Positions 874 through 60,799 of a DNA stretch of 64,000 bases are shown here, piece after piece (the stretch's first letter is position 1; every line of letters starts with the position of its first letter). The position numbers and the translations under genes are program-made. Location: contig OZ024746.1 in assembly GCA_964016885.1 (NCBI GenBank), positions 38,440,001 to 38,504,000 of the forward strand, given 5' to 3'. The notes under the pieces are model-generated. The model searched no databases. It was not told the origin of the DNA and saw only the letters and a list, made by a program, of their open reading frames with translations. The stretch comes from Eledone cirrhosa (lineage: Eukaryota).

Positions 874-3800
874 TCAGATATTCAGGGCGTATCGGAGGGT
901 TCTTGCTGTTCCAAGCAAGCATGCCTTTTGGAGCGTTCCAAAAAGCGTGAAGGGGCCGATTTTCTTTAACCATCCCTCGAAACTTTTGGAGATAATCCCC
1001 AGTGCGCCTATGACAATCGGGATCACTTTGACTTCATGGCAGTTCCAAATCCTTTTCACCTCCCAGTTTAGGTCCTGGTATCGGTTAATTTTCTCCCTCT
1101 CCTTCTCTTGCACTCTCGTGTCGAACGGGCAGGCCACATCCACAATCAGACACGATCTTTTTTCTTTGTCCACAACCACCAGGTCAGGTCTATTGTGTTC
1201 CAGTTTTTTGTCCGTCTGTATCCTAAAATCCCACAGCAGCTTCACCTGATTGTTCTCCATCACCGCCTCTGGCCTATGCTCATACCATTTCTCAGAATGT
1301 GGTAAATTGTTTACTTTGCACAGGTGCCAGTGGATCACCCTGCCCATCACATCGTGTCTCCAGCCCTTATAGTGGGTCTGGGCTAGGTGTTTACACTCGG
1401 ACGCAATGTGAGCCACAGTCTCCTCTCTCTCTCCACAGATCCTGCACAGTGGGCTAGCCTCCCCCTTGTAAATATGGTGCTTCAACCACTTCGTTTTGAG
1501 GGCCTGCTCCTGCGCAGCCATTAGCATTCCTTCTGTAGTCTTTTTGAGGTCTTCTCTTCTCAACCAGTTCCATGTCTGTGGATCTCTAAATTCAGTTTTC
1601 TCAAAGAAGGTACTATGAAGGGATTTTCCCTTAAGGCTGCTCTTCCTCCTTGATGTTATTTCCTCCTTGGATATCCCCTGGCCCACTGTCCCCTCCTTCA
1701 GTACAGTTCTGAGCATTGGCTCCTTACTATAGGTCACGTATTTGTATAGGTTGTTTTTCTCCATCTGAACACAGTCCTCTATGCTGATAAGACCTCTTCC
1801 ACCCTCAGATCTCCTTAGGTAGAGTCTATCGACATCACTCCTCTTGTGGAACATGTTGTAGATAGTCAATAGCTTCCTAGTCTTCCTATCCATTTCTTTT
1901 TGTTCAGCAACATTCCATCTCAGAATTCCCGCACTGTACCTAATAATAGACACAGCTCGGGAATTTACTGCGCTTATGGCATTTCTGCTGTTCAGATGTG
2001 ACTTCAATACGCTCCTTACTCTCCGAATGTATTCAGTTCTTAACAATTCCTTCATTTTTTTTGTTCTTTATGCCATCAGCCTCCAGAACGCCCAAATACT
2101 TGTATCCCTCCTCAGAGTCAATTTACTTTATCATCTCACCTGTTGGTATCTGTATCCCGTTACTTCTGCTCAACATACCCCTCCTCATCACAATGACTCC
2201 ACATTTACCAATACCAAACTGCATACATATATCACTGCTGAAAATACGGACAGTGTCAACAAGCACATCCAACTCCTTCTCACTTTTCCCGAAGAGCTTA
2301 AGATCGTCCATGAAGAGGAGGTGATTGATGGTAAGCCCTCCCTTTCCCAACTTGTATCCTGCTCTCACTTTTCGCAGCATAATGGTCAAGGGCATCAGGG
2401 CAAGGACAAACAACAGAGGGGACAGACTATCTCCCTGGAAGATACCTCTCTTGATCTTCACGCTTCCCAAGGATACTCCAGTTGATGTCAACTCTGTCTC
2501 CCAGGACCCCATACTCCTGCCCAGCAACTGTCTGATGTTATCTGCCACCCTGAAGATCTCCAGGCTTTTGGTGATCCAAGAATGAGGCACCATGTCAAAT
2601 GCCTTTCTGTAGTCTATCCATCCCATGGCAAGATCAGTGTGCCTCCTCCTGCAATTCCCCATTACCATCTTATCAATAAGTAACTGGTCCTTTGTACCAC
2701 GTGACTTCTTTCGGCATCCTTTCTGTTCGTCCGGTAACAAGTTGTTTGTGTGGAAGTGATGGTAGATTTCCTCAGACACAATGCTCGTCAACAGTTTCCA
2801 CATTACGGACAGACATGTGATAGGTCTATAGTTGGTAACATCATTACCCTTGATTCGGTATTTCATTATCAGAACTGTGGTACCTTTTCTCAACCACTCT
2901 GGCACCTCACCCGATACCAAGCAGTCATTGAACATGGCCGTCAGCTTCGGGTGGAGGGATGTTAAATTTTTAATCCAATACCCCTCCACACCATCTGGGC
3001 CTGGTGATTTCCAGTTGGTTAGTTTTTTGGCCTGCCCCTTAAGAGTTTCAACTGTGATACTCAAATCAGTTTGTTGGTGTGCCTGCTCACCGATCTCCCT
3101 CTGTACTGTCTCAATCCACCCTGCCTGGACATTATGTCTAACATCCTGCTCCCATATTCCTCTCCAGAATGTTTCAGTTTGCTCCGCCCCAGGGATCAAG
3201 TCGTTGCCTCTTTCTTTCCCCTCAAGCTGTCCAAACAGCATCTTCTGGTTGTTGTCGAACATGCGGTTCTGTTTATACTGACTGAGTCTGTTCTCGTATC
3301 GCCTGATTTTTGCACTCTTTGCTGCAATGCGTTGCTTCAGTTCCTCTATGATAATATTTAGCTTTTTTCTCCTAGTTGTGTACTTTATTTCCAGTCTATT
3401 TTTAGTGCCTATGTTTTTTAGTGTCCCATTCAGTAGTGACTCAAGCTTTCCTATGTCATTTCTCATTTCCCCGACTTGACCACTCAGTCATTTCTTCCAC
3501 CACGGCTCTGCTCTTTCTTGTCTGTTGTTTCCTCTCGCTTTTATACCAAGTAGTTTCCTCACCGTATTTGCTGTTGCTTTGAGGATATTGTTGCACTGGT
3601 GAAGGCTCCTCGCCTCAAGATATGGGATGACTTTGTTTACCTTAGCTGTTGTTTCTTTTAACTTTTTCCTGTCTACAAATCTTAGGTTCATAGGTCTCCC
3701 ACTATCATTGTTCAATTCATCTACCACTAAATTTAGGATGTCAACGGAATCTTGTCCTAGCCCGTCAGCATTCATCTCCTCAGTGGCCGTATCTCTGTTC

Positions 3801-10110: not shown

Positions 10111-13100
10111 GAATGCTATGGTTGACGGAGGCTCGGCTCTGTAAGGTATTGTAAATGTTGAACGCTATAACAATTGTAAATTGTTTAAAACTTTAACGAA
10201 CTTGTAGACAAAAACACCCTCCTCGAGAGAGAGGGGTCTTTCTGCCCGTTATTTGGCCCTTCGGGGTTAAATAACTGCTTATTGGGGTTTTGTGCCCAAT
10301 ATTTATTTTAAACAAAAAAAACAACATGGCTACGAAATTCAAGATAGTCAGCTACACGGACCACAAATTCGTGATCTGTGTGCTTGACTTAGATAGGCTT
10401 CATAGACGAGGACCCGGCTACTGGAAGCTAAACGCGTTCTTACCAGCACGCAAGGCCTACAGAGACCGGATTAGCGAACTAGTTAAGCGGGCGTTGACGG
10501 GGGCCATCGTCAACAACAAGTGGTGGTTTGCTCTGAAAAGAGCGATTAGAATAGAATCCATTAGGTTTAGTAAGGCTTTAGCAATAGAGAAAAATAGAGC
10601 AGAGGGAGAACTAGTTGGAAAATTAGACGAGGCGCTTAGCAAAGGCATTGCGACCGACGTGCTTGCGGCGAAATTGGCCCTTGACCAATTCTTCAATGCA
10701 AAGCACGAAGGCTGCGTTGTCAGAGCAAGGGTGCGTGCTCTCAGACACGAGGGGACAAAAGCCATTCAATGGGCCCGAGTGGCGGAGGCGTGTCGTGGCA
10801 ACAAAGCCACGATCCGGTCTTTGGTGGACCACGACGGGCGCATACTACTCGATCCCAGGCAAATGTGTGAAGCTTTTCAGCGACACTTCGCTCAGCTGTT
10901 ATGGGGCAGCGGTGGGCCGGGTCGAGGGATGGACTTTAGTGTCTACCTCGACGGACTGCCGCGGCTCTCGGCCACTGAGGCGAGGTGTTGCGAAAAGCCG
11001 ATAACAGCCGCTGAAGTAAGGGAGGCAATGACTGGCTGCACAAGGGGTAAATCTGGTCTGCCCTATGAAGTTTACGTACAGATGCCATACTTGTTCGGAG
11101 GCTTCTTGGCGGACGTCTACTGCAACTGGCAACAGAACGGGAGAATTCCCAGTTCTATGAGCCGAGGAGCGGTGGCACTGCTGAGAAAGGATCCAAACAA
11201 GGGGGATAATATAGATAATTTCCGGCCCATAACACTGCTAAACACAGAGTTCAAGATTTTGGCCAAGGTGCTAGCAAAGAGGTTGGCGCTTGTCGTTTGT
11301 GGTCTGGTGGGAGAGGCGCAGACATGCGCCATTCCCGACAGATCCATCCACGACAACCTCCACCTCATGCGATACATCGTAGAGAGGGTAGCTAGGGAAC
11401 CTGGCACGGGTGGGTCTTTGATCAATTTAGTTCAGTCGAAAGCTTTCGATAGGGTCGACCATCGTTACCTAGCGGCAGTCCTGAGGGCGGCTGGCTTTGG
11501 GCCCGTCTTCAGAGGCTGGATCGCTGCCATGCACAGCGACATCTGCTCTGTGGTGAGAGTGAACGGTCACCTGTCGGAACCGTTCAACATCATGCGCTCG
11601 GTCCGCCAAGGATGTCCCCTCTCGTCCCTCTTGTACGTATTGACTCTCGAGCCATTACTGCACAAACTGGAGACGTTGAGGGGAGTCCCGCGCGAACTAG
11701 GATGCGGAAGATCCGTGTCAGCATATGCGGACGATGTCACCGTAGTGGTGTCGAACGCCAAACACATCGAGGCGATCGGCACTACACTAAGAGAATACGA
11801 AGCGGTGACAGGAGCAATGATCAACCAGGAAAAGTCAGTGGGCCTGCAGCTCGGCACCTGGAGAGGCAGGTCCATGCCGTCCAACAGCGTCGTCGGACGC
11901 TGGACGGACGGACCGGTTAAATTGCTGGGGGTCTGGTTCGGTCCGGACCTCCAGACGGACAAAAACTGGGACGAGGTGACGAGCAGGGTGGCTTCTCTCA
12001 CCCAGAAATGGACGGAGAGGAAGCTATCCCTGAAAGGTCGAGCGGAGGTGGCTAACGCGTATATCGCGTCTGTCATCTGCTACCGCCTGACCATCGTACC
12101 TTGTCCTAAGCCTCGCTTGACTGCGCTGGGGCGTTTGCTCTTTCGTTTTTTGTGGAAGGGACGTGCTCCGATGGTCAGGCGGTCCATCTGTTGTCAACAC
12201 CCGCTACGTGGAGGGCTGGGCATGCCGTGGCTGATGATGCGCAGGCACGCGCTCAGGCTACGACATCTCCACCTCTTCCTGGACGGTGATAAGGTGTGGT
12301 CGCCGTTTGCTAGACACGTATTTCCCCAGCTCGTTTCCTTGACGGAGCTGCAGTCCTGGGTCAAGCGAAGACCGAGAGGGAGCGCCTGGAGACTGGAAAT
12401 ACTTCAGGCGCTCACAGCCCTCGACTAATCGGGCAATGTGATCGGTGGAAACTCCACCTCGGCGTTCTATAGAGGATTAGTGGAGGGGAAGAGCGACGAC
12501 GTACTTGGGGAAACTCTAGGCGTCGACGAAAATCAACTAGCCAATCTCTTCGGAAGAACTTTCGGGCCAGGGCCTATGGACAACTTCCAGAAATCTCTGG
12601 CCTGGCAGTGCTACCGAGGAGCCTTGCAAGTTCGGGATAAACTCTACAGGCATGGAGGTGCCGTCAGCCGGGCATGTCCGAGATGCGCGCAGGGCGACGA
12701 AACCGTCCTGCACGCACTCGTCCAGTGTCCGAAAATTGCTGACTTGTGGGTTTATGTCGAACACCTGCTGTCGCGTTTAGGACGGATCCGGCTATCATCT
12801 GAGTCCATCGTGAGGATTGCCCCGCCCTCCTCCTTTAGCCGGGAAGGGCAGGCAGTTTTTATCTGTCTGGTGGCCATGGCGAAAGAGATAGTATGGTGGA
12901 CACGTTTGAAAGGGCTGAAGACGAGCACTTACCTCTTCGGTGATGCTCTGATTGACTTTTTCAAATTTCATTTGAAAAGGAAAATCAGAGTAGAGAGGGA
13001 AGTGCTCTCTTCCCAGCATTTTGTTGAAAGATGGGTGAGAGAAGCAAGAATGGCCCCAGTGAATGGGCCTACTCTGAGTATATATCTGTAAATTAAAGGT

Positions 13101-24680: not shown

Positions 24681-27600
24681 TGTTTCTTTTATTTGCCACT
24701 AGGGCATCAAAAGTGGGACAAGTACAAAGGGGGGAGTTTACACAAAAAGGCGTCCTCAATAAGGAGGAGGCAATAACAAAATATAAAAATAAAATAAGAT
24801 ATAACAAAAAATAAAATTTTTAACAAAATCCTCAATAGAGAGGAGGCGCCTTGGGGGGTCGCACACACCCCCGAAAAAAGTGTGCAACCCTTCTCCTCAG
24901 GAGCACAGAGAAGGGGGTGCTCCCTTGGTCTTTCATCTTCCTCGCCTATAGTCTGATGTAGAGTGAAGGCCCATTCACACGGGCCATTCTCGCCACTTTC
25001 ACCCATCTTTCATAGAAACGGCTGGGGTGCAGCACCTCTCTCTCCATCCTGATCCTTCTTCCGAAATGATATCGGAAGAAACGGACCAGTTGTTGGCCAG
25101 AGAGAAAGGTGCCTGACCTCAGTCCTTTCAGACGCGTCCACCATACAACCTCTTTCGCCATGGCTATTACGCACAGAAACACCGCCTCTGCTTCATCTTT
25201 GAAGGGGGGGGGGGCGGCTTGATCATTACAATAGACTCGGTGGTCAACCGGATCGGTCCCACCCTTGACAGCAGTTGTTCGACATAGCCCCACAGATCGG
25301 CTGCGCCCGAGCAGTGTACCAATGCGTGTGCAACGGTTCCCTCGTCGCACACGCATCTGGGACAGATCTTTTTCGAGGGGTCCCTACCCGGGCGCCCGTG
25401 TCTGTAGAGCCTTTCTCGAACGGGTAAAGCCCCTCGGTAGCACTGCCAGGTCAGGGACTTCTGGAAGTTGTCCATAGGTCCCGGGCTGAATGTCCTACCG
25501 AACAGGCTGGCCAGTTCGTCCTCCTCCATGTCTAGGGCTTCTCCGAGGGCGTCGTCGCACCTGCTGCGTACCAGCCCTCTATAGAATGTTGCGGTGGAGT
25601 CTCCACTGATAACCGGATCCGCCTGCCAGAGGGCGGTGAGCGCCTGGGCACACTCAGTGTGCCAGGCGCCCAGTTTTCTCGGTCTTTGCTTGACACAGGA
25701 TTGCAGCTCGGTGAGTGAGACGAGTCTGGGAAAGGTTAGTCTCACAAACGAGGCCCACACCGGTTGTCCGGTGAGGAATACGTAGAGGTGCCGTAGCCTT
25801 AATGCGTGTTTACGCATCAATAGCCACGGCATCCCCAGCCCTCCTTTCGAAGGGTGTTGACAGCAGATGGATCTCCTCACCATAGGAGCCCGCCTCTTCC
25901 AAAGGAATTGGAAGAGCGCGCGCTCCATCTTGGTGAGGGTTTCCCTTGGGCAGGGCACTACGGTCAGGAGGTAGTAGATGACGGACGCTATGTAGGTGTT
26001 CGCCACCTCCGCCCGACCTTTCAGGGATAGTTTGCAACTGGCCCACTTCTGGGTCAGTGCAAACACCCTGTTCGTAACCTCCGCCCAGTTTTTCTCCACC
26101 TGGAGGTCCGGTCCGAACCAGACCCCGAGCAACTTCACCGGGCCCTCCGTCCAGCGTCCGACGACGCCATCGGAGGGCATCGGTCTGCCCCTCCACGTGC
26201 CGAGTTGCAAACCGATCGACTTGTCCCGGTTCAGCTTAGCCCCTGTGAACTTTTCGTACTCCTCCAGTAAGGTGCCGACCGCCTCGATTTCGGAGGCCGT
26301 CGACACCATTACTGTCACGTCATCGGCGTAGGCCGACACCGCTTTCCGCAATCCCGGTTCCAAAGGGATGCCCTGCAACAACTCCAACTTCCGCAGTAGT
26401 GGCTCGAGAGTCAACACATACAGAAGGGAGGAGAGAGGGCACTCTTGTCGGATGGACCGCGCGATTTTGAACGGCTCCGAGAGGTAGCCGTTCACCTTGA
26501 CCCTAGAACAGATGCGGCTGCTGTGCATAGCAGTGATCCAGCCCCTGAAACGGGTCCGAAGCCTGCCGCCGCTAGCACCGCATCCAGGTAACCATGGTCG
26601 ACCCTATCGAACGCCTTAGATTGATCCAAGTTGATCAGAGCCCCACCAAAGCCGGGTTCGTTCCCAACCCTCTCTATGATGTATCGCATAAGGTGGAGGT
26701 TGTCATGGATGGACCTGGACGAGATAGCGCATGTCTGCGCATCTCCCACCAGGTTGCCCACGACAAGCGCCAACCTCTTTGCTAGCACCTTGGCCAAAAT
26801 CTGTAACTCTGTATTTAGCAGTGTTATGGGCCTGAAGTTACTTATTTCGTCCCCCTTGTTCTCGTCCTTCCTCACTAGCGTGACTACGCCCTTGGTCACA
26901 GTACAGGGAATTCTCCCGTTCTGTTGCCAGTTGCAGTAGACCGCCTCGAGGAGATCGGGGAACAAGTCCGGCATAGCTAGATATAATTCGTAAGGAAGAC
27001 CATCGAGACCCGGGGATTTGCGTTTGCCGCATTGGCTCAGCACGTCCTCTATCTCAGTGGCCGAAATCGGCTCCTCGCAGGACTTCGCCTCCCTGTCCGA
27101 GAGGCGCGGCAGGCCGTCGAGGTATGGACCGAAGTCCACGTTCCCAACCGGCTCCCCGCCCCTCCCGAACAGTCGAGCAAAGTGCCTTTGAAAGGCCTCA
27201 CACATCTGCTTAGGCTCAAGAATCGCCCGTCCATCCAGGTCTCGCAAAGACCGGATGGTGGATTTAGTTCCACTGTTGGCCTCTGTCACGCGGGCCCAGC
27301 TAACAGCTTTGGTCCCCTCGTTCCCTAGAGCACGTATTTAACTTCGGACAACGCAGCCTTCGTGCTTCGCGTCGAAAAACTGGCTCAAAGCCGTTCTCGA
27401 CGCTAGCACTCTGGCCACGTCGCCGCTTCTAATTGCCTCTTCTACTCTATCTATTAGCTCCCTTTCCTTCCTATTCCTATCCGCAGCTAGAACCTTACTA
27501 AATTCTATCGAGACTACTCTAATCTCTCTCTTTAGAGATACCCACCACCTGCTGTTGACGATCGCTCCAGTCAACCGTTCCTTAACTAACGTACTAATCC

Positions 27601-28856
27601 GATTCCTGTAGGCTCTACTTGCCGGCAAGGACAAGTTGAGCTTCCAGTAACCGGGGCCCTGTCTATGAGTTTTGTCAAGGTTGACCATGCAGGTCACTAA
27701 TTTGTGGTCTGAATAGCCAACCATGCGCATTTTTGGACAACTTAAAAAGTCCTTATCCTTAATTCTAACTAAGAACCTATCTAGGTACGACCTAGATGAT
27801 CCGCTACGATTTGCCCAAGTCCAGGTTGGCGCAGTCGGAAAATCTAGTCGATATCTATCGGCCAGGTCAAATCGACCGATTAACCCTTTGAGGCTATTAC
27901 ACCCCTCTCTATCGGGGCAGGCCCCTACGTAGTCCCAGCGTGCATCTTGGATACCATTCCAGTCCCCCACTAATAGCAAGGAGCGGGACGTCCCTAGAAA
28001 AGTCTCCAGACGATGGAAGAAGTCCGGCCGCATTGACCCGAAAGGGCCGTAGGCGGCTACCAACCTAAACGCTCCGCCTTTACCACTGCCAAGGTCCAGC
28101 ACCACTAGTCGACCCTCCGGGTCCAAATGTACCATCTGTGTTGCGAGACCCAGATGTTTTTGCAGCAGAACGACAACTCCACCCCCACCTCCGGGCTGAC
28201 AGAGAGATGCGTGCATCTCAAAGTCATCAAAGGTGGGGGCCAGCTGTCGCACGTTGCTGATCCGGGCCTCGCAAATAACCATCACATCTATACGTTGTGA
28301 CCTGAGGTCATTTAGAAGCATTTCTTGCTTCCAAGTTGAGCCCAGGCCACGCGCATTTAAACAGCCTACTCTTAGCATAGCCATGTTGGTGGTGTAGAGA
28401 AAAGGCACTTACCTCTCTGCGTCCCGGGTATCGGGCTGCACAATTTCCATTAGGGTGGGGGATGGGTTGTTGGGTGGGGTGGTGGTTTGTGGAAGTGTGG
28501 GGGCATCAGTGTGTTGTGTGGTTGGGGAGCTTGGAGTTGTGTGGGTGTTTGGGGAGGGGGTGGGATAGTTTTTAGGAGGACGCGGTTAATGGGCCCGACG
28601 CAGGGGGGACCCACGTCCTCTTTAAAATTGTTTTTTAAAGTTTTATAGGTGTCCTGTGGGGCCTTAATCATTTTGAGGTGGGGGAAATCCCCTGCCTGGG
28701 TGAAGTTAGGCCCTTGTGTTTTTATTAGATTGTTGTTGTACACAATGTTTAACAGTTTTTTTGTTTCTTGTATTTATGTATGTGTATGCATGTTTTTGTT
28801 TTTGTGTGGTGTTTTTTGTTTGCTGTTGTTGTGAGCTCTTTTGTGTTGGTGTCAGT
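24681..28856 (-). mobile_element. Tx1-clade LINE, family B, 5'-truncated within ORF1
   Basis: ORF2 pieces 27338-28408, 26492-27289, 25167-26528 and 24946-25356 give APE, RT (YADD) and CCHC domains; 3' end GTGGCAAATAAA..GAAACA then (TATC)n. Confidence 0.92.
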
Positions 28857-31186: not shown

Positions 31187-31265
<79 letters not shown>

Positions 31266-31554
31266 CAAATAACGAAACGAAATTAAATTTCGTTTCGTTT
31301 GTAACTCACTTTTGTATGACTGACGCTTAAACAATTAAGTTAAAGATGTACATCCATATATGTATACTGAAATACTAGTATGTATATGAATACACACACG
31401 TATACATATGTAGATGTACCAAGTTTTTTCACTGGTCACTTTACTGTGAGTGGCCAGCTATTCTGTATGTAAACACACAGACAAACCGGTTTTTAGAGTC
31501 ATACTGGTTTTTGAGGAAACACCTTTCCTCTATTCTCCAGAAAGCCAGACAAGG

Positions 31555-31599
31555 AATATTGAACTAGTTTCGTTGTTGTTACAACTCATCAGCAATATT
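31555..31599 (-). ncRNA. Minimal type I hammerhead ribozyme (array unit)
   Basis: AAUAUUG-CUGAUGA-GUUG(UAACAA)CAAC-GAAA-CUAG-UU-CAAUAUU. Confidence 0.85.
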
Positions 31600-32021
31600 T
31601 ACCTATCTTCCGGCCTCTCTAGAGAATCGTAAAAGCACATATCGTTATATGCTTTTTCTATGAAAATTAGTAGTGGGCAGACTAATTTGCATAGAGTGTG
31701 AGTAAGTACCAGTTCAACGGAGACGATAAAAACAAATAACGAAACGAAATTAAATTTCGTTTCGTTTGTAACTCACTTTTGTATGACTGACGCTTAAACA
31801 ATTAAGTTAAAGATGTACATCCATATATGTATACTGAAATACTAGTATGTATATGAATACACACACGTATACATATGTAGATGTACCAAGTTTTTTCACT
31901 GGTCACTTTACTGTGAGTGGCCAGCTATTCTGTATGTAAACACACAGACAAACCGGTTTTTAGAGTCATACTGGTTTTTGAGGAAACACCTTTCCTCTAT
32001 TCTCCAGAAAGCCAGACAAGG

Positions 32022-32066
32022 AATATTGAACTAGTTTCGTTGTTGTTACAACTCATCAGCAATATT
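32022..32066 (-). ncRNA. Minimal type I hammerhead ribozyme (array unit)
   Basis: Same 45-nt motif. Confidence 0.85.
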
Positions 32067-32405
32067 TACCTATCTTCCGGCCTCTCTAGAGAATCGTAAA
32101 AGCACATATCGTTATATGCTTTTTCTACATATGTATACGTGTGTGTATTCATATACATACTAGTATTTCAGTATACATATATGGATGTACATCTTTAACT
32201 TAATTGTTTAAGCGTCAGTCATACAAAAGTGAGTTACAAACGAAACGAAATTTAATTTCGTTTCGTTATTTGTTTTTATCGTCTCCGTTGAACCGGTACT
32301 TACTCACACTCTATGCAAATTAGTCTGCCCACTACTAATTTTCATAGAAAAAGCATATAACGATATGTGCTTTTACGATTCTCTAGAGAGGCCGGAAGAT
32401 AGGTA

Positions 32406-32450
32406 AATATTGCTGATGAGTTGTAACAACAACGAAACTAGTTCAATATT
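32406..32450 (+). ncRNA. Minimal type I hammerhead ribozyme (array unit)
   Basis: Same 45-nt motif; predicted cleavage after 32443. Confidence 0.85.
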
Positions 32451-32871
32451 CCTTGTCTGGCTTTCTGGAGAATAGAGGAAAGGTGTTTCCTCAAAAACCA
32501 GTATGACTCTAAAAACCGGTTTGTCTGTGTGTTTACATACAGAATAGCTGGCCACTCACAGTAAAGTGACCAGTGAAAAAACTTGGTACATCTACATATG
32601 TATACGTGTGTGTATTCATATAATACTAGTATTTCAGTATACATATATGGATGTACATCTTTAACTTAATTGTTTAAGCGTCAGTCATACAAAAGTGAGT
32701 TACAAACGAAACGAAATTTAATTTCGTTTCGTTATTTGTTTTTATCGTCTCCGTTGAACCGGTACTTACTCACACTCTATGCAAATTAGTCTGCCCACTA
32801 CTAATTTTCATAGAAAAAGCATATAACGATATGTGCTTTTACGATTCTCTAGAGAGGCCGGAAGATAGGTA

Positions 32872-32916
32872 AATATTGCTGATGAGTTGTAACAACAACG
32901 AAACTAGTTCAATATT
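32872..32916 (+). ncRNA. Minimal type I hammerhead ribozyme (array unit)
   Basis: Same 45-nt motif; predicted cleavage after 32909. Confidence 0.85.
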
Positions 32917-33338
32917 CCTTGTCTGGCTTTCTGGAGAATAGAGGAAAGGTGTTTCCTCAAAAACCAGTATGACTCTAAAAACCGGTTTGTCTGTGTGTTT
33001 ACATACAGAATAGCTGGCCACTCACAGTAAAGTGACCAGTGAACAAACTTGGTACATCTACATATGTATACGTGTGTGTATTCATATACATACTAGTATT
33101 TCAGTATACATATATGGATGTACATCTTTAACTTAATTGTTTAAGCGTCAGTCATACAAAAGTGAGTTACAAACGAAACGAAATTTAATTATGTTTCGTT
33201 ATTTGTTTTTATCGTCTCCGTTGAACCGGTACTTACTCACACTCTATGCAAATTAGTCTGCCCACTACTAATTTTCATAGAAAAAGCATATAACGATATG
33301 TGCTTTTACGATTCTCTAGAGAGGCCGGAAGATAGGTA

Positions 33339-33383
33339 AATATTGCTGATGAGTTGTAACAACAACGAAACTAGTTCAATATT
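33339..33383 (+). ncRNA. Minimal type I hammerhead ribozyme (array unit)
   Basis: Same 45-nt motif; predicted cleavage after 33376. Confidence 0.85.
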
Positions 33384-33805
33384 CCTTGTCTGGCTTTCTG
33401 GAGAATAGAGGAAAGGTGTTTCCTCAAAAACCAGTATGACTCTAAAAACCGGTTTGTCTGTGTGTTTACATACAGAATAGCTGGCCACTCACAGTAAAGT
33501 GACCAGTGAAAAAACTTGGTACATCTACATATGTATACGTGTGTGTATTCATATACATACTAGTATTTCAGTATACATATATGGATGTACATCTTTAACT
33601 TAATTGTTTAAGCGTCAGTCATACAAAAGTGAGTTACAAACGAAACGAAATTTAATTTCGTTTCGTTATTTGTTTTTATCGTCTCCGTTGAACCGGTACT
33701 TACTCACACTCTATGCAAATTAGTCTGCCCACTACTAATTTTCATAGAAAAAGCATATAACGATATGTGCTTTTACGATTCTCTAGAGAGGCCGGAAGAT
33801 AGGTA

Positions 33806-33850
33806 AATATTGCTGATGAGTTGTAACAACAACGAAACTAGTTCAATATT
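33806..33850 (+). ncRNA. Minimal type I hammerhead ribozyme (array unit)
   Basis: Same 45-nt motif; predicted cleavage after 33843. Confidence 0.85.
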
Positions 33851-34297
33851 CCTTGTCTGGCTTTCTGGAGAATAGAGGAAAGGTGTTTCCTCAAAAACCA
33901 GTATGACTCTAAAAACCGGTTTGTCTGTGTGTTTACATACAGAATAGCTGGCCACTCACAGTAAAGTGACCAGTGAAAAAACTTGGTACATCTACATATG
34001 TATACGTGTGTGTATTCATATACATACTAGTATTTCAGTATACATATATGGATGTACATCTTTAACTTAATTATATATATATATATATATATATACATTT
34101 AAGTTTTATGGTTGACCACTGGATAGAATTGGTTATTTCTTATAGTTAACCATGTTATAATAGTAAGAAAAGGACTCGACGTTACGCAACTCATCCATCT
34201 TTGATGTTGAATCCTGTTGTCGGTGCAGGAACGGACTTAATTAGTATTAAGTAAAATGACAGGAGGCTGGACTGGTAAAATTCCTTCAAATTGTTAT

Positions 34298-35825: not shown

Positions 35826-36101
35826 TAATGTATAAAAATCAATACAATATAATTACCTCATTACCAGAGGTTTCCCGAATGAGGCGAATACGAAAAAAAC
35901 GTCTTCATTCGTTCGTCAGACGAGGCAATATCTGACGAACGAATGAAGACGTTTCTTTCGTATTCGCCTCATTCGGGAAACCTCTGGTAATGAGGTAATT
36001 ATATTGTATTGATTTTTATACATTAAATTTTGCTCTGGTACTTACATAGAGCACTCTTCATTTCTATGACCTTTTCTGTTTTCAACGGAAATTTCAATAC
36101 C
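35826..36101. mobile_element. Fold-back PLE-like insertion with hammerhead (35926-36006 on +, core mirrored on -)
   Basis: ~95-bp inverted arms around a 10-nt spacer; CUGACGA-A-CGAAUGA..UCAUUCG-G-GAAA-CCUC(UGGUAAU)GAGG-UA; (TA)n on both sides. Confidence 0.78.
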
Positions 36102-60744: not shown

Positions 60745-60799
60745 ACTGCCTGAAGAGGTCACAGCCAAAGATGGCTGTCACTGAAATATATATAGCAGT
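60745..60799 (+). ncRNA. Minimal type I hammerhead with palindromic stem III
   Basis: ACUGC-CUGAAGA-GGUC-ACAGCCA(AAGA)UGGCUGU-CACU-GAAA-UAUAUA-UA-GCAGU, then AATAAA; island 60627-60850 between (TA)n tracts. Confidence 0.85.

Follow-up and report, generated by a model that had tools for sequence, protein, structure and literature searches.

Metazoan non-LTR (non-long terminal repeat) retrozymes are an already known class: AT-rich, non-coding tandem units, found in thousands of copies, which carry a canonical type I hammerhead ribozyme with a short palindromic stem III, coexist with Penelope-like elements (PLEs) and are proposed to use a circular template (PMC7229834; 10.64898/2026.07.22.740005; here and below, statements about a cited paper refer to the parts of it that were available). 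PLEs are named in these papers as strong candidates for the mobiliser, mobilisation itself being a hypothesis there. Here we describe a retrozyme family that is represented by an array in a 64 000-nucleotide stretch of the Eledone cirrhosa genome (assembly GCA_964016885.1, contig OZ024746.1, positions 38,440,001 to 38,504,000 of the forward strand; this whole stretch is called the window, and its numbering is used throughout). The window family shows the testable features of the class. Its unit of 467 nt is longer than the 150–450 bp given in PMC7229834 and lies within the 51–972 bp of 10.64898/2026.07.22.740005; however, two opposed arms, two fixed ends and an internal U6-like element are undescribed for the retrozymes in the available parts of both papers, and the lineage lies outside the sampling described there. 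On balance, we read the array as one recent insertion of a high-copy, non-coding non-LTR retrozyme, likely written by a Penelope-like reverse transcriptase (RT)-endonuclease, with a single RNA, probably in the form of a monomer circle, serving as template for priming at both DNA ends.

Other known elements resemble the family in part. Insertions of PLEs share with it an inverted, truncated copy of the 5' side, a tail at one end only, two internal starts of reverse transcription and AT-rich or (TA)n targets, and a non-autonomous, multi-copy, head-to-tail Penelope-like derivative, MRC1, is known from Chlamydomonas (10.1101/2021.04.23.441226; PMC8557442; PMC3846280; PMC11167929). The window family differs from these insertions in that it has no open reading frame (ORF), has a tail of ∼70–74 nt (30–40 nt in PLEs) and has arms that can both span many units; no homology to helper ends was found. 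Newt satellite 2 and the schistosome Sm-alpha repeats have in common with it hammerhead repeats with an internal promoter (a putative one in the window family) driving the next unit; this promoter is of the small nuclear RNA (snRNA) RNA polymerase II (Pol II) type in the newt repeat and a Pol III promoter in the schistosome repeat (PMC2220036; PMC6765202). The window family differs in that its motif is that of host U6/U6atac genes, not U1/U2, and in its shorter spacing to the TATA box. For the giant squid genome, 235 hammerhead hits have been counted, and counted only (PMC6962438). No description of the window family or of two-armed retrozyme insertions was found in the literature searched (Repbase, Dfam and most subscription papers lay outside it).

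The array (31259–34072) comprises 6.04 near-identical units of 466–467 bp, whose differences amount to four events (at 31711, a 1-bp deletion near 32623, at 33044 and at 33191–33192). An earlier note, made from the window sequence alone, had counted about six units and about four differing sites, which agrees with this, but had taken them for a single tandem array. The array in fact consists of two opposed arms joined head-to-head: 1.9 units (869 bp) on the minus strand and 4.2 units (1949 bp) on the plus strand, with a 4-bp overlap (Table 1). Tandem Repeats Finder reports 32124–34072 only (4.2 copies), because the first 869 bp are inverted. Unit positions are counted here from the base after a predicted cut (unit 1 is window position 33377). 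The unit has a GC content of ∼35%, under the 50% that bounds the retrozyme class, and, as had been noted, it holds no credible ORF (when circularised, it offers no ATG frame longer than 30 a.a.) and the array has (TA)n on both sides. No reading frame combining RT and GIY-YIG was found inside the array or any mapped insertion.

The unit is not confined to this locus, a possibility that the earlier note had left standing: the exact 45-nt ribozyme is present in 4,843 copies in the 3.0-Gb genome. The dispersed multimers in (TA)n that the note had expected are found, but instead of being circularly permuted the mapped insertions end at two unit positions only, 229–234 (site A) and 302–304 (site B), each joined to (TA)n. 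The two sites are ∼70 nt apart on the unit, and each arm uses one of them. Exact site-B/(TA)n junctions number 2,173 genome-wide, whereas the count of A ends (724 forward, 1,349 reverse) is inflated by multiple matches and is not used as a number. The array ends do fall mid-unit, at fixed family-wide sites rather than at random points of a circle; because they are fixed, the argument of the earlier note that mid-unit ends point to a circular template fails. What the note had overlooked is the Penelope signature, an inversion combined with two fixed sites of priming.

The pairing of the two ends is strict. We classified by eye a sample in genome order, consisting of the first 40 listed contig 1 B ends that had not previously been fetched (39 distinct; L216, a duplicate of L215, was dropped). 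All resolved two-armed insertions (27 out of 27) have one A and one B end; the rest of the 39 are one-armed (eight) or unresolved (four), and none is B–B. Among the 27 opposite A ends, two lie at unit 225 and several are just 10–20 nt long. One A and one B end were also found in 16 out of 17 two-armed insertions chosen by their ribozyme, the exception being L148 (A–A). Loci L154–L173, which were chosen partly for adjacent A and B matches, are excluded from these pairing counts. The tail between the two sites ranks with the unit's least variable stretches (0.011 vs 0.032 overall, 80 insertions). Any target duplication (in the class these exceed 4 bp where they occur) would be hidden by (TA)n; one locus (L224) shows a duplication of ∼30 nt. 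We rejected site B as a Pol III terminator, because the homologous end of a sister family lies several bases past its T run and because many B arms extend upstream through the putative promoter. Six read runs from four studies contain the unit, with a very high summed depth in run X2, whose contigs include arm-switch joints with sides under 30 nt; none of this is counted as evidence.

The inverted 5' copy, the one-ended tail, the two fixed ends and the AT-rich target are all features of Penelope-type insertions, and we regard both the assignment to non-LTR retrozymes and mobilisation by a PLE as very likely. Inverted Penelope insertions carry a tail at one end (10.1101/2021.04.23.441226); in vitro, this tail corresponds to the segment that separates two internal RT starts, and cutting and extension affect both DNA strands, the protein responsible being a predicted dimer (PMC11167929). 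Autonomous Penelope-like families in the E. cirrhosa genome have the same two-end footprint. One of them, H1, located beside a retrozyme copy, is young and abundant (L237, L250–L265). It inserts into (TA)n and ends 50–77 and 144–157 nt past its ribozyme, the short end being paired with the long end in eight out of nine inverted insertions. A frame of 821 a.a. was recovered in 14 out of 16 H1 copies (median divergence 1.5%), the copies having been chosen because they were listed at 821 a.a. The frame has Hydra-clade features (a DKT motif, a CxCx5C linker and, at the C terminus, a GIY-YIG-like region without CCHH), and the RWK motif is present as RWT/RWI (compared with PMC8557442); it has no RT match in Pfam, and its BLASTP match to a Neptune-type frame has an E-value of 6e-5. 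This young, intact Hydra-clade family is the best candidate for the helper, but the footprint is not specific to it: a Neptune-type family has the same one. Neptune- and Poseidon-like parents were rejected for want of homology in those of their pseudo-LTRs (pLTRs) that were compared; no search for a Naiad helper was made. Several Neptune-type families are present in loci L081–L090, with frames of up to 938 and 1,096 a.a. from stop to stop.

The arms also carry information on their template. Comparing arm with arm within each of 29 insertions gives 45 differences in 10,507 shared bases (0.43%), compared with 3.8% between insertions, and the own arm is strictly the closest in 19 of them. In 19 further insertions the arms differ at 44 out of 6,164 bases (0.7%, vs 6.5% between insertions), and in 12 of these the nearest sequence is again that of the own arm. 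Private variants are fixed across both arms, for example in 19/19, 23/23, 8/8 and 8/8 units, and majority sequences coincide in only 13 out of 3,160 insertion pairs. Most within-array variants are singletons (91 out of 120, in 14 deep arrays), and four recur in both arms. Some of the youngest arrays have no singletons (none in 19.8 units and none in 8.0 units). Private variants shared by both arms argue for one template and a bottleneck of one RNA monomer; taken together with the strict rule of one A and one B end, they argue that priming at both DNA ends used a single RNA. For one monomer copied repeatedly, the simplest template is a circle, and judging from these patterns a circle is probably what was used. 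Changes from A to G make up 10 out of 30 private fixed variants but only 20 out of 216 singletons (Fisher p 0.0009), an excess that may be the mark of an RNA step. Three A>G changes within 6 nt are identical in 19/19 units of a 20-unit array (L042+L043). As it happens, this cluster destroys the upstream element described below, so that the array is a natural promoter-dead control.

All six hammerheads match Rfam Hammerhead_HH9 (two on the minus and four on the plus strand), each scoring 37.7 bits, short of the gathering threshold of 52, at an E-value of 5e-7; the cuts that the earlier note had predicted after 32443, 32909, 33376 and 33843 hold as predicted positions. The note had called the ribozyme minimal. 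Its fold is, however, canonical type I: stem I has 7 bp and continues beyond an internal loop, stem II has 4 bp and stem III is a 6-nt palindrome, whereas the minimal PLE hammerhead has a short helix I, a long helix II and a bulged base before helix II (PMC4209133); the extended helix I and the 4-bp helix II set the window ribozyme apart from that type. Within the family, stem II occurs in two alternative compensatory forms, and the triplet is GTT or GTC. Among 14 variants of the window family and its sister family, the stems are paired in 94% of cells (30–49% in slid controls), both sides have changed at six out of 16 stem pairs, and the covariation score (0.394) is reached in none of 500 shuffles, although the number of doubly changed pairs is by itself unexceptional (168/500 shuffles). 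As the sequences are related, this covariation counts as support and not as a probability. A type I architecture like this one needs a second copy (PMC4209133), and it is likely that the window hammerhead, as modelled, also requires dimers. The retrozyme-type identity proposed in the earlier note is supported by non-coding, dispersed units with a type I hammerhead.

A motif upstream in the unit is conserved in three retrozyme families, which prompted a comparison with host snRNA genes. In the host, the two best U6 genes, one U6 tandem array and the best U6atac gene carry the motif at −76 to −78 and a TATA box at −30. On a promoter matrix made from these four, the unit scores 21.6 (P 0.001; leave-one-out range 13.4–22.8), a value reached by 0/193 genomic windows, and U1/U2 promoters score 3.9 or less. 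The upstream element of the unit is identical to that of one U6 gene at 14 out of 14 bases, and segment 348–386 is the most conserved part of the unit. Transcription would be predicted to start near unit 409–410. The spacing between such an element and the TATA box may act as a switch of polymerase type. We also observed that the host U1/U2 genes and the two best U6 genes (L101–L140, L174–L189) have a common distal motif near −260 and different proximal elements, that an octamer-like motif marks the host U6 and U6atac genes, and that the host U1, U2 and U6 genes form long tandem arrays.

Several observations weigh against the reading of the array as a Penelope-type insertion copied from a self-promoted circle. 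As to the template, 29 of the 120 variants found within the deep arrays are shared by several units, for the most part at periods of 2–6 units and in one arm. Such periodic one-arm variants point to block duplication after insertion, which lengthens some arms, so that arm length is not purely a product of rolling circles; of the rolling-circle cDNA of a circular RNA proposed in the earlier note, the monomer bottleneck stands but the length of some long arms does not. On the sense strand the excess of A>G over T>C falls short of significance (10 v 3, p 0.055; 8 v 7 in the first, smaller set), and assembly polishing could exaggerate within-array identity. Junction-side ends are slightly enriched near the cut site (17/108 v 9.9 expected, p 0.02), a hint that some templates are cut linear RNA. 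The palindromic stem III and the GUU triplet predict weak cleavage of the monomer; eight out of nine Xenopus dimers stayed uncut in vitro (10.64898/2026.07.22.740005), and in Penelope work in vitro cleavage was dispensable for insertion and uncut RNA was the main template (PMC11167929), which favours a linear template. As to the helper, the H1 tail aligns in register with site A, but the similarity is not significant (P 0.093), and the unit has no homology to the ORF-flanking DNA of 50 GIY-YIG loci and 16 H1 loci, a non-exhaustive set (150 scored out of 10,597 GIY-YIG candidates). As to the promoter, the host U1/U2-type motif (−56 to −58) is unmatched in the unit (score 5.2, P 0.44), the element-to-TATA spacing is 41–43 nt in the retrozyme families but 46–48 nt in host genes, and runs of T5 and T4 in the unit would hinder read-through by Pol III.

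Some of these points would be expected if the same element had been copied, by the same Penelope-type twin priming, from a long linear transcript of a homogeneous source array, left as an uncut or partly cut multimer, with the ribozyme weak or incidental. The dominance of uncut RNA as template for another Penelope element in vitro (PMC11167929), the weak predicted fold of the monomer, the rebuilding of long arms by block duplications and the slight excess of 5' ends near the cut site all fit such a template. We nevertheless consider it unlikely: almost all insertions carry fixed variants of their own, present in each unit of the two arms, the youngest arrays are almost without unit-level variation where a linear copy should inherit the unit differences of its parent, the three-A>G cluster is the same in every unit examined, and the ribozyme stems covary across families.

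Identical arms would also result if the second arm were a self-primed copy of the first cDNA, with the fixed ends produced by endonuclease resolution. This has been proposed for Penelope inverted repeats (PMC3846280), and a few junctions are palindromic (L210, L225 and, in the sister family, L150). But either arm may be the longer (14.3 kb A/0.35 kb B in one insertion and 1.2 kb A/7.2 kb B in another), the length of one arm does not correlate with that of the other (rho 0.17), the unit positions that meet at most junctions are unrelated, and two RT starts that match the tail have been demonstrated in vitro (PMC11167929), so that a fold-back origin is quite improbable. We give similarly little credence to the idea, raised in the earlier note, that the unit is the pLTR of a further autonomous PLE and the arrays are by-products of tandem pLTRs. 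Among Xenopus retrozyme families, 24 out of 57 match known elements, nearly all of them Penelope-like (10.64898/2026.07.22.740005), and the many GIY-YIG elements of the E. cirrhosa genome leave room for such a parent; however, there is no ORF inside any mapped insertion, the flanks surveyed above lack the unit (separate nested retrozyme copies aside), the ribozyme is canonical and not of the minimal PLE type, and the H1 pLTR lacks the U6-like element. An ordinary DNA-level satellite with a vestigial ribozyme would account for the block duplications after insertion, but it is largely refuted by the end structure, that is, by short insertions that are dispersed in their thousands, lie in (TA)n with fixed ends and are 5'-truncated on the inner side, as well as by the A>G excess among fixed variants and the covarying ribozyme stems.

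An insertion primed at both DNA ends on one monomer circle could arise as follows. The U6-like element and TATA box of each unit would start transcription ∼58 nt before the cut site, and the polymerase would read through into the following units. Neighbouring hammerheads, pairing through their palindromic stem III, are predicted from their structure and from known families to cut the transcript into 467-nt monomers, which a host ligase would close. A helper protein acting in trans would then nick both (TA)n strands, as the footprint and the in vitro Penelope work suggest, and cDNA would start at site A (unit 229–234) at one end and at site B (unit 303) at the other. Both RTs would continue beyond one unit length, each displacing the cDNA of the other, and microhomology would join the resulting pair of 5'-truncated cDNAs head-to-head; later block duplications lengthen the arms, as is seen in some arrays. 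Tentatively, and with rather less than even confidence, we suggest a fuller picture of a self-promoted, genome-encoded RNA circle that parasitises PLEs by double rolling-circle reverse transcription: two RT subunits ∼70 nt apart would chase each other round one circle and leave mirror-image concatemers bearing the A-to-I edits of that very molecule, and a captured U6-type element with shortened spacing would permit read-through of the T runs.

The sister retrozyme family is 66–70% identical to the window family and ends at homologous sites. Its units are ∼450–510 bp long, with an internal TA run and a GUA triplet (L091:7450-9901, L150, L151, L152, L153, L257), and it has a (TA)n target and a U6-like upstream element as in the window family. 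A third, distant hammerhead element occurs as single copies with a longer stem III (L152 minus strand ∼3300–3470; L090; L061; L193); it carries both a U6-like element and, alone among the three families, a good match to the host U1/U2 motif (16.3, P 0.002), and both imply the same start. Retrocopies of U6atac adjoin (TA)n or Penelope-type ends (L190, L191, L193, L196), and in L193 such a retrocopy is fused head-to-head to the third hammerhead element, which suggests, from these joints, that the same machinery may copy host small RNAs. Elsewhere in the window, further hammerhead-like motifs of the Penelope pLTR type lie at 35860–35990 (an inverted pair ending in (TA)n) and at 60750, and unrelated, broken RT frames of LINE type lie at 2123–3487, 10275–13091 and 25167–28408.

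Table 1. Features of the two-armed array in window coordinates, with unit positions counted from the base after a predicted cut.
Feature	Position	Strand	Remarks
(TA)n target, left	31190..31258	.	
Arm B (1.86 units, unit 369->303), with fixed site B (unit 303) as outer end	31259..32127	-	
74-nt tail (unit 230-303) between both fixed ends	31259..31332	-	terminal long predicted hairpin
Type I hammerhead, predicted cut after 31562 (last triplet base)	31552..31603	-	
U6-like upstream element	31682..31695	-	
Type I hammerhead, predicted cut after 32029 (last triplet base)	32019..32070	-	
Head-to-head arm junction, 4-bp microhomology	32124..32127	.	
Arm A (4.18 units, unit 148->229), with fixed site A (unit 229-234) as outer end	32124..34072	+	
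U6-like upstream element (32310-32323) and TATA-like box (32353-32361)	32310..32361	+	
Further pairs of U6-like element and TATA-like box	32776/32819, 33243/33286, 33710/33753	+	
Type I hammerhead, predicted cut after 32443	32402..32453	+	
Type I hammerhead, predicted cut after 32909	32868..32919	+	
Type I hammerhead, predicted cut after 33376	33335..33386	+	
Complete cut-to-cut monomer, 467 nt	33377..33843	+	∼66% paired, predicted circular fold
Type I hammerhead, predicted cut after 33843	33802..33853	+	
(TA)n target, right	34073..34095	.	

The copying and the switching-on of animal retrozymes are proposed, and not shown, in the available parts of PMC7229834 and 10.64898/2026.07.22.740005. 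The window family offers exact start sites for the RT, together with candidates for an intact helper protein and for a promoter, and with these the proposed step from circle to concatemer becomes directly testable in vitro. It also bears on the unexplained inverted-repeat-and-tail structure of Penelope insertions, and a naturally occurring RT that turns a circular RNA into multi-copy cDNA would, if real, be of interest as a tool.
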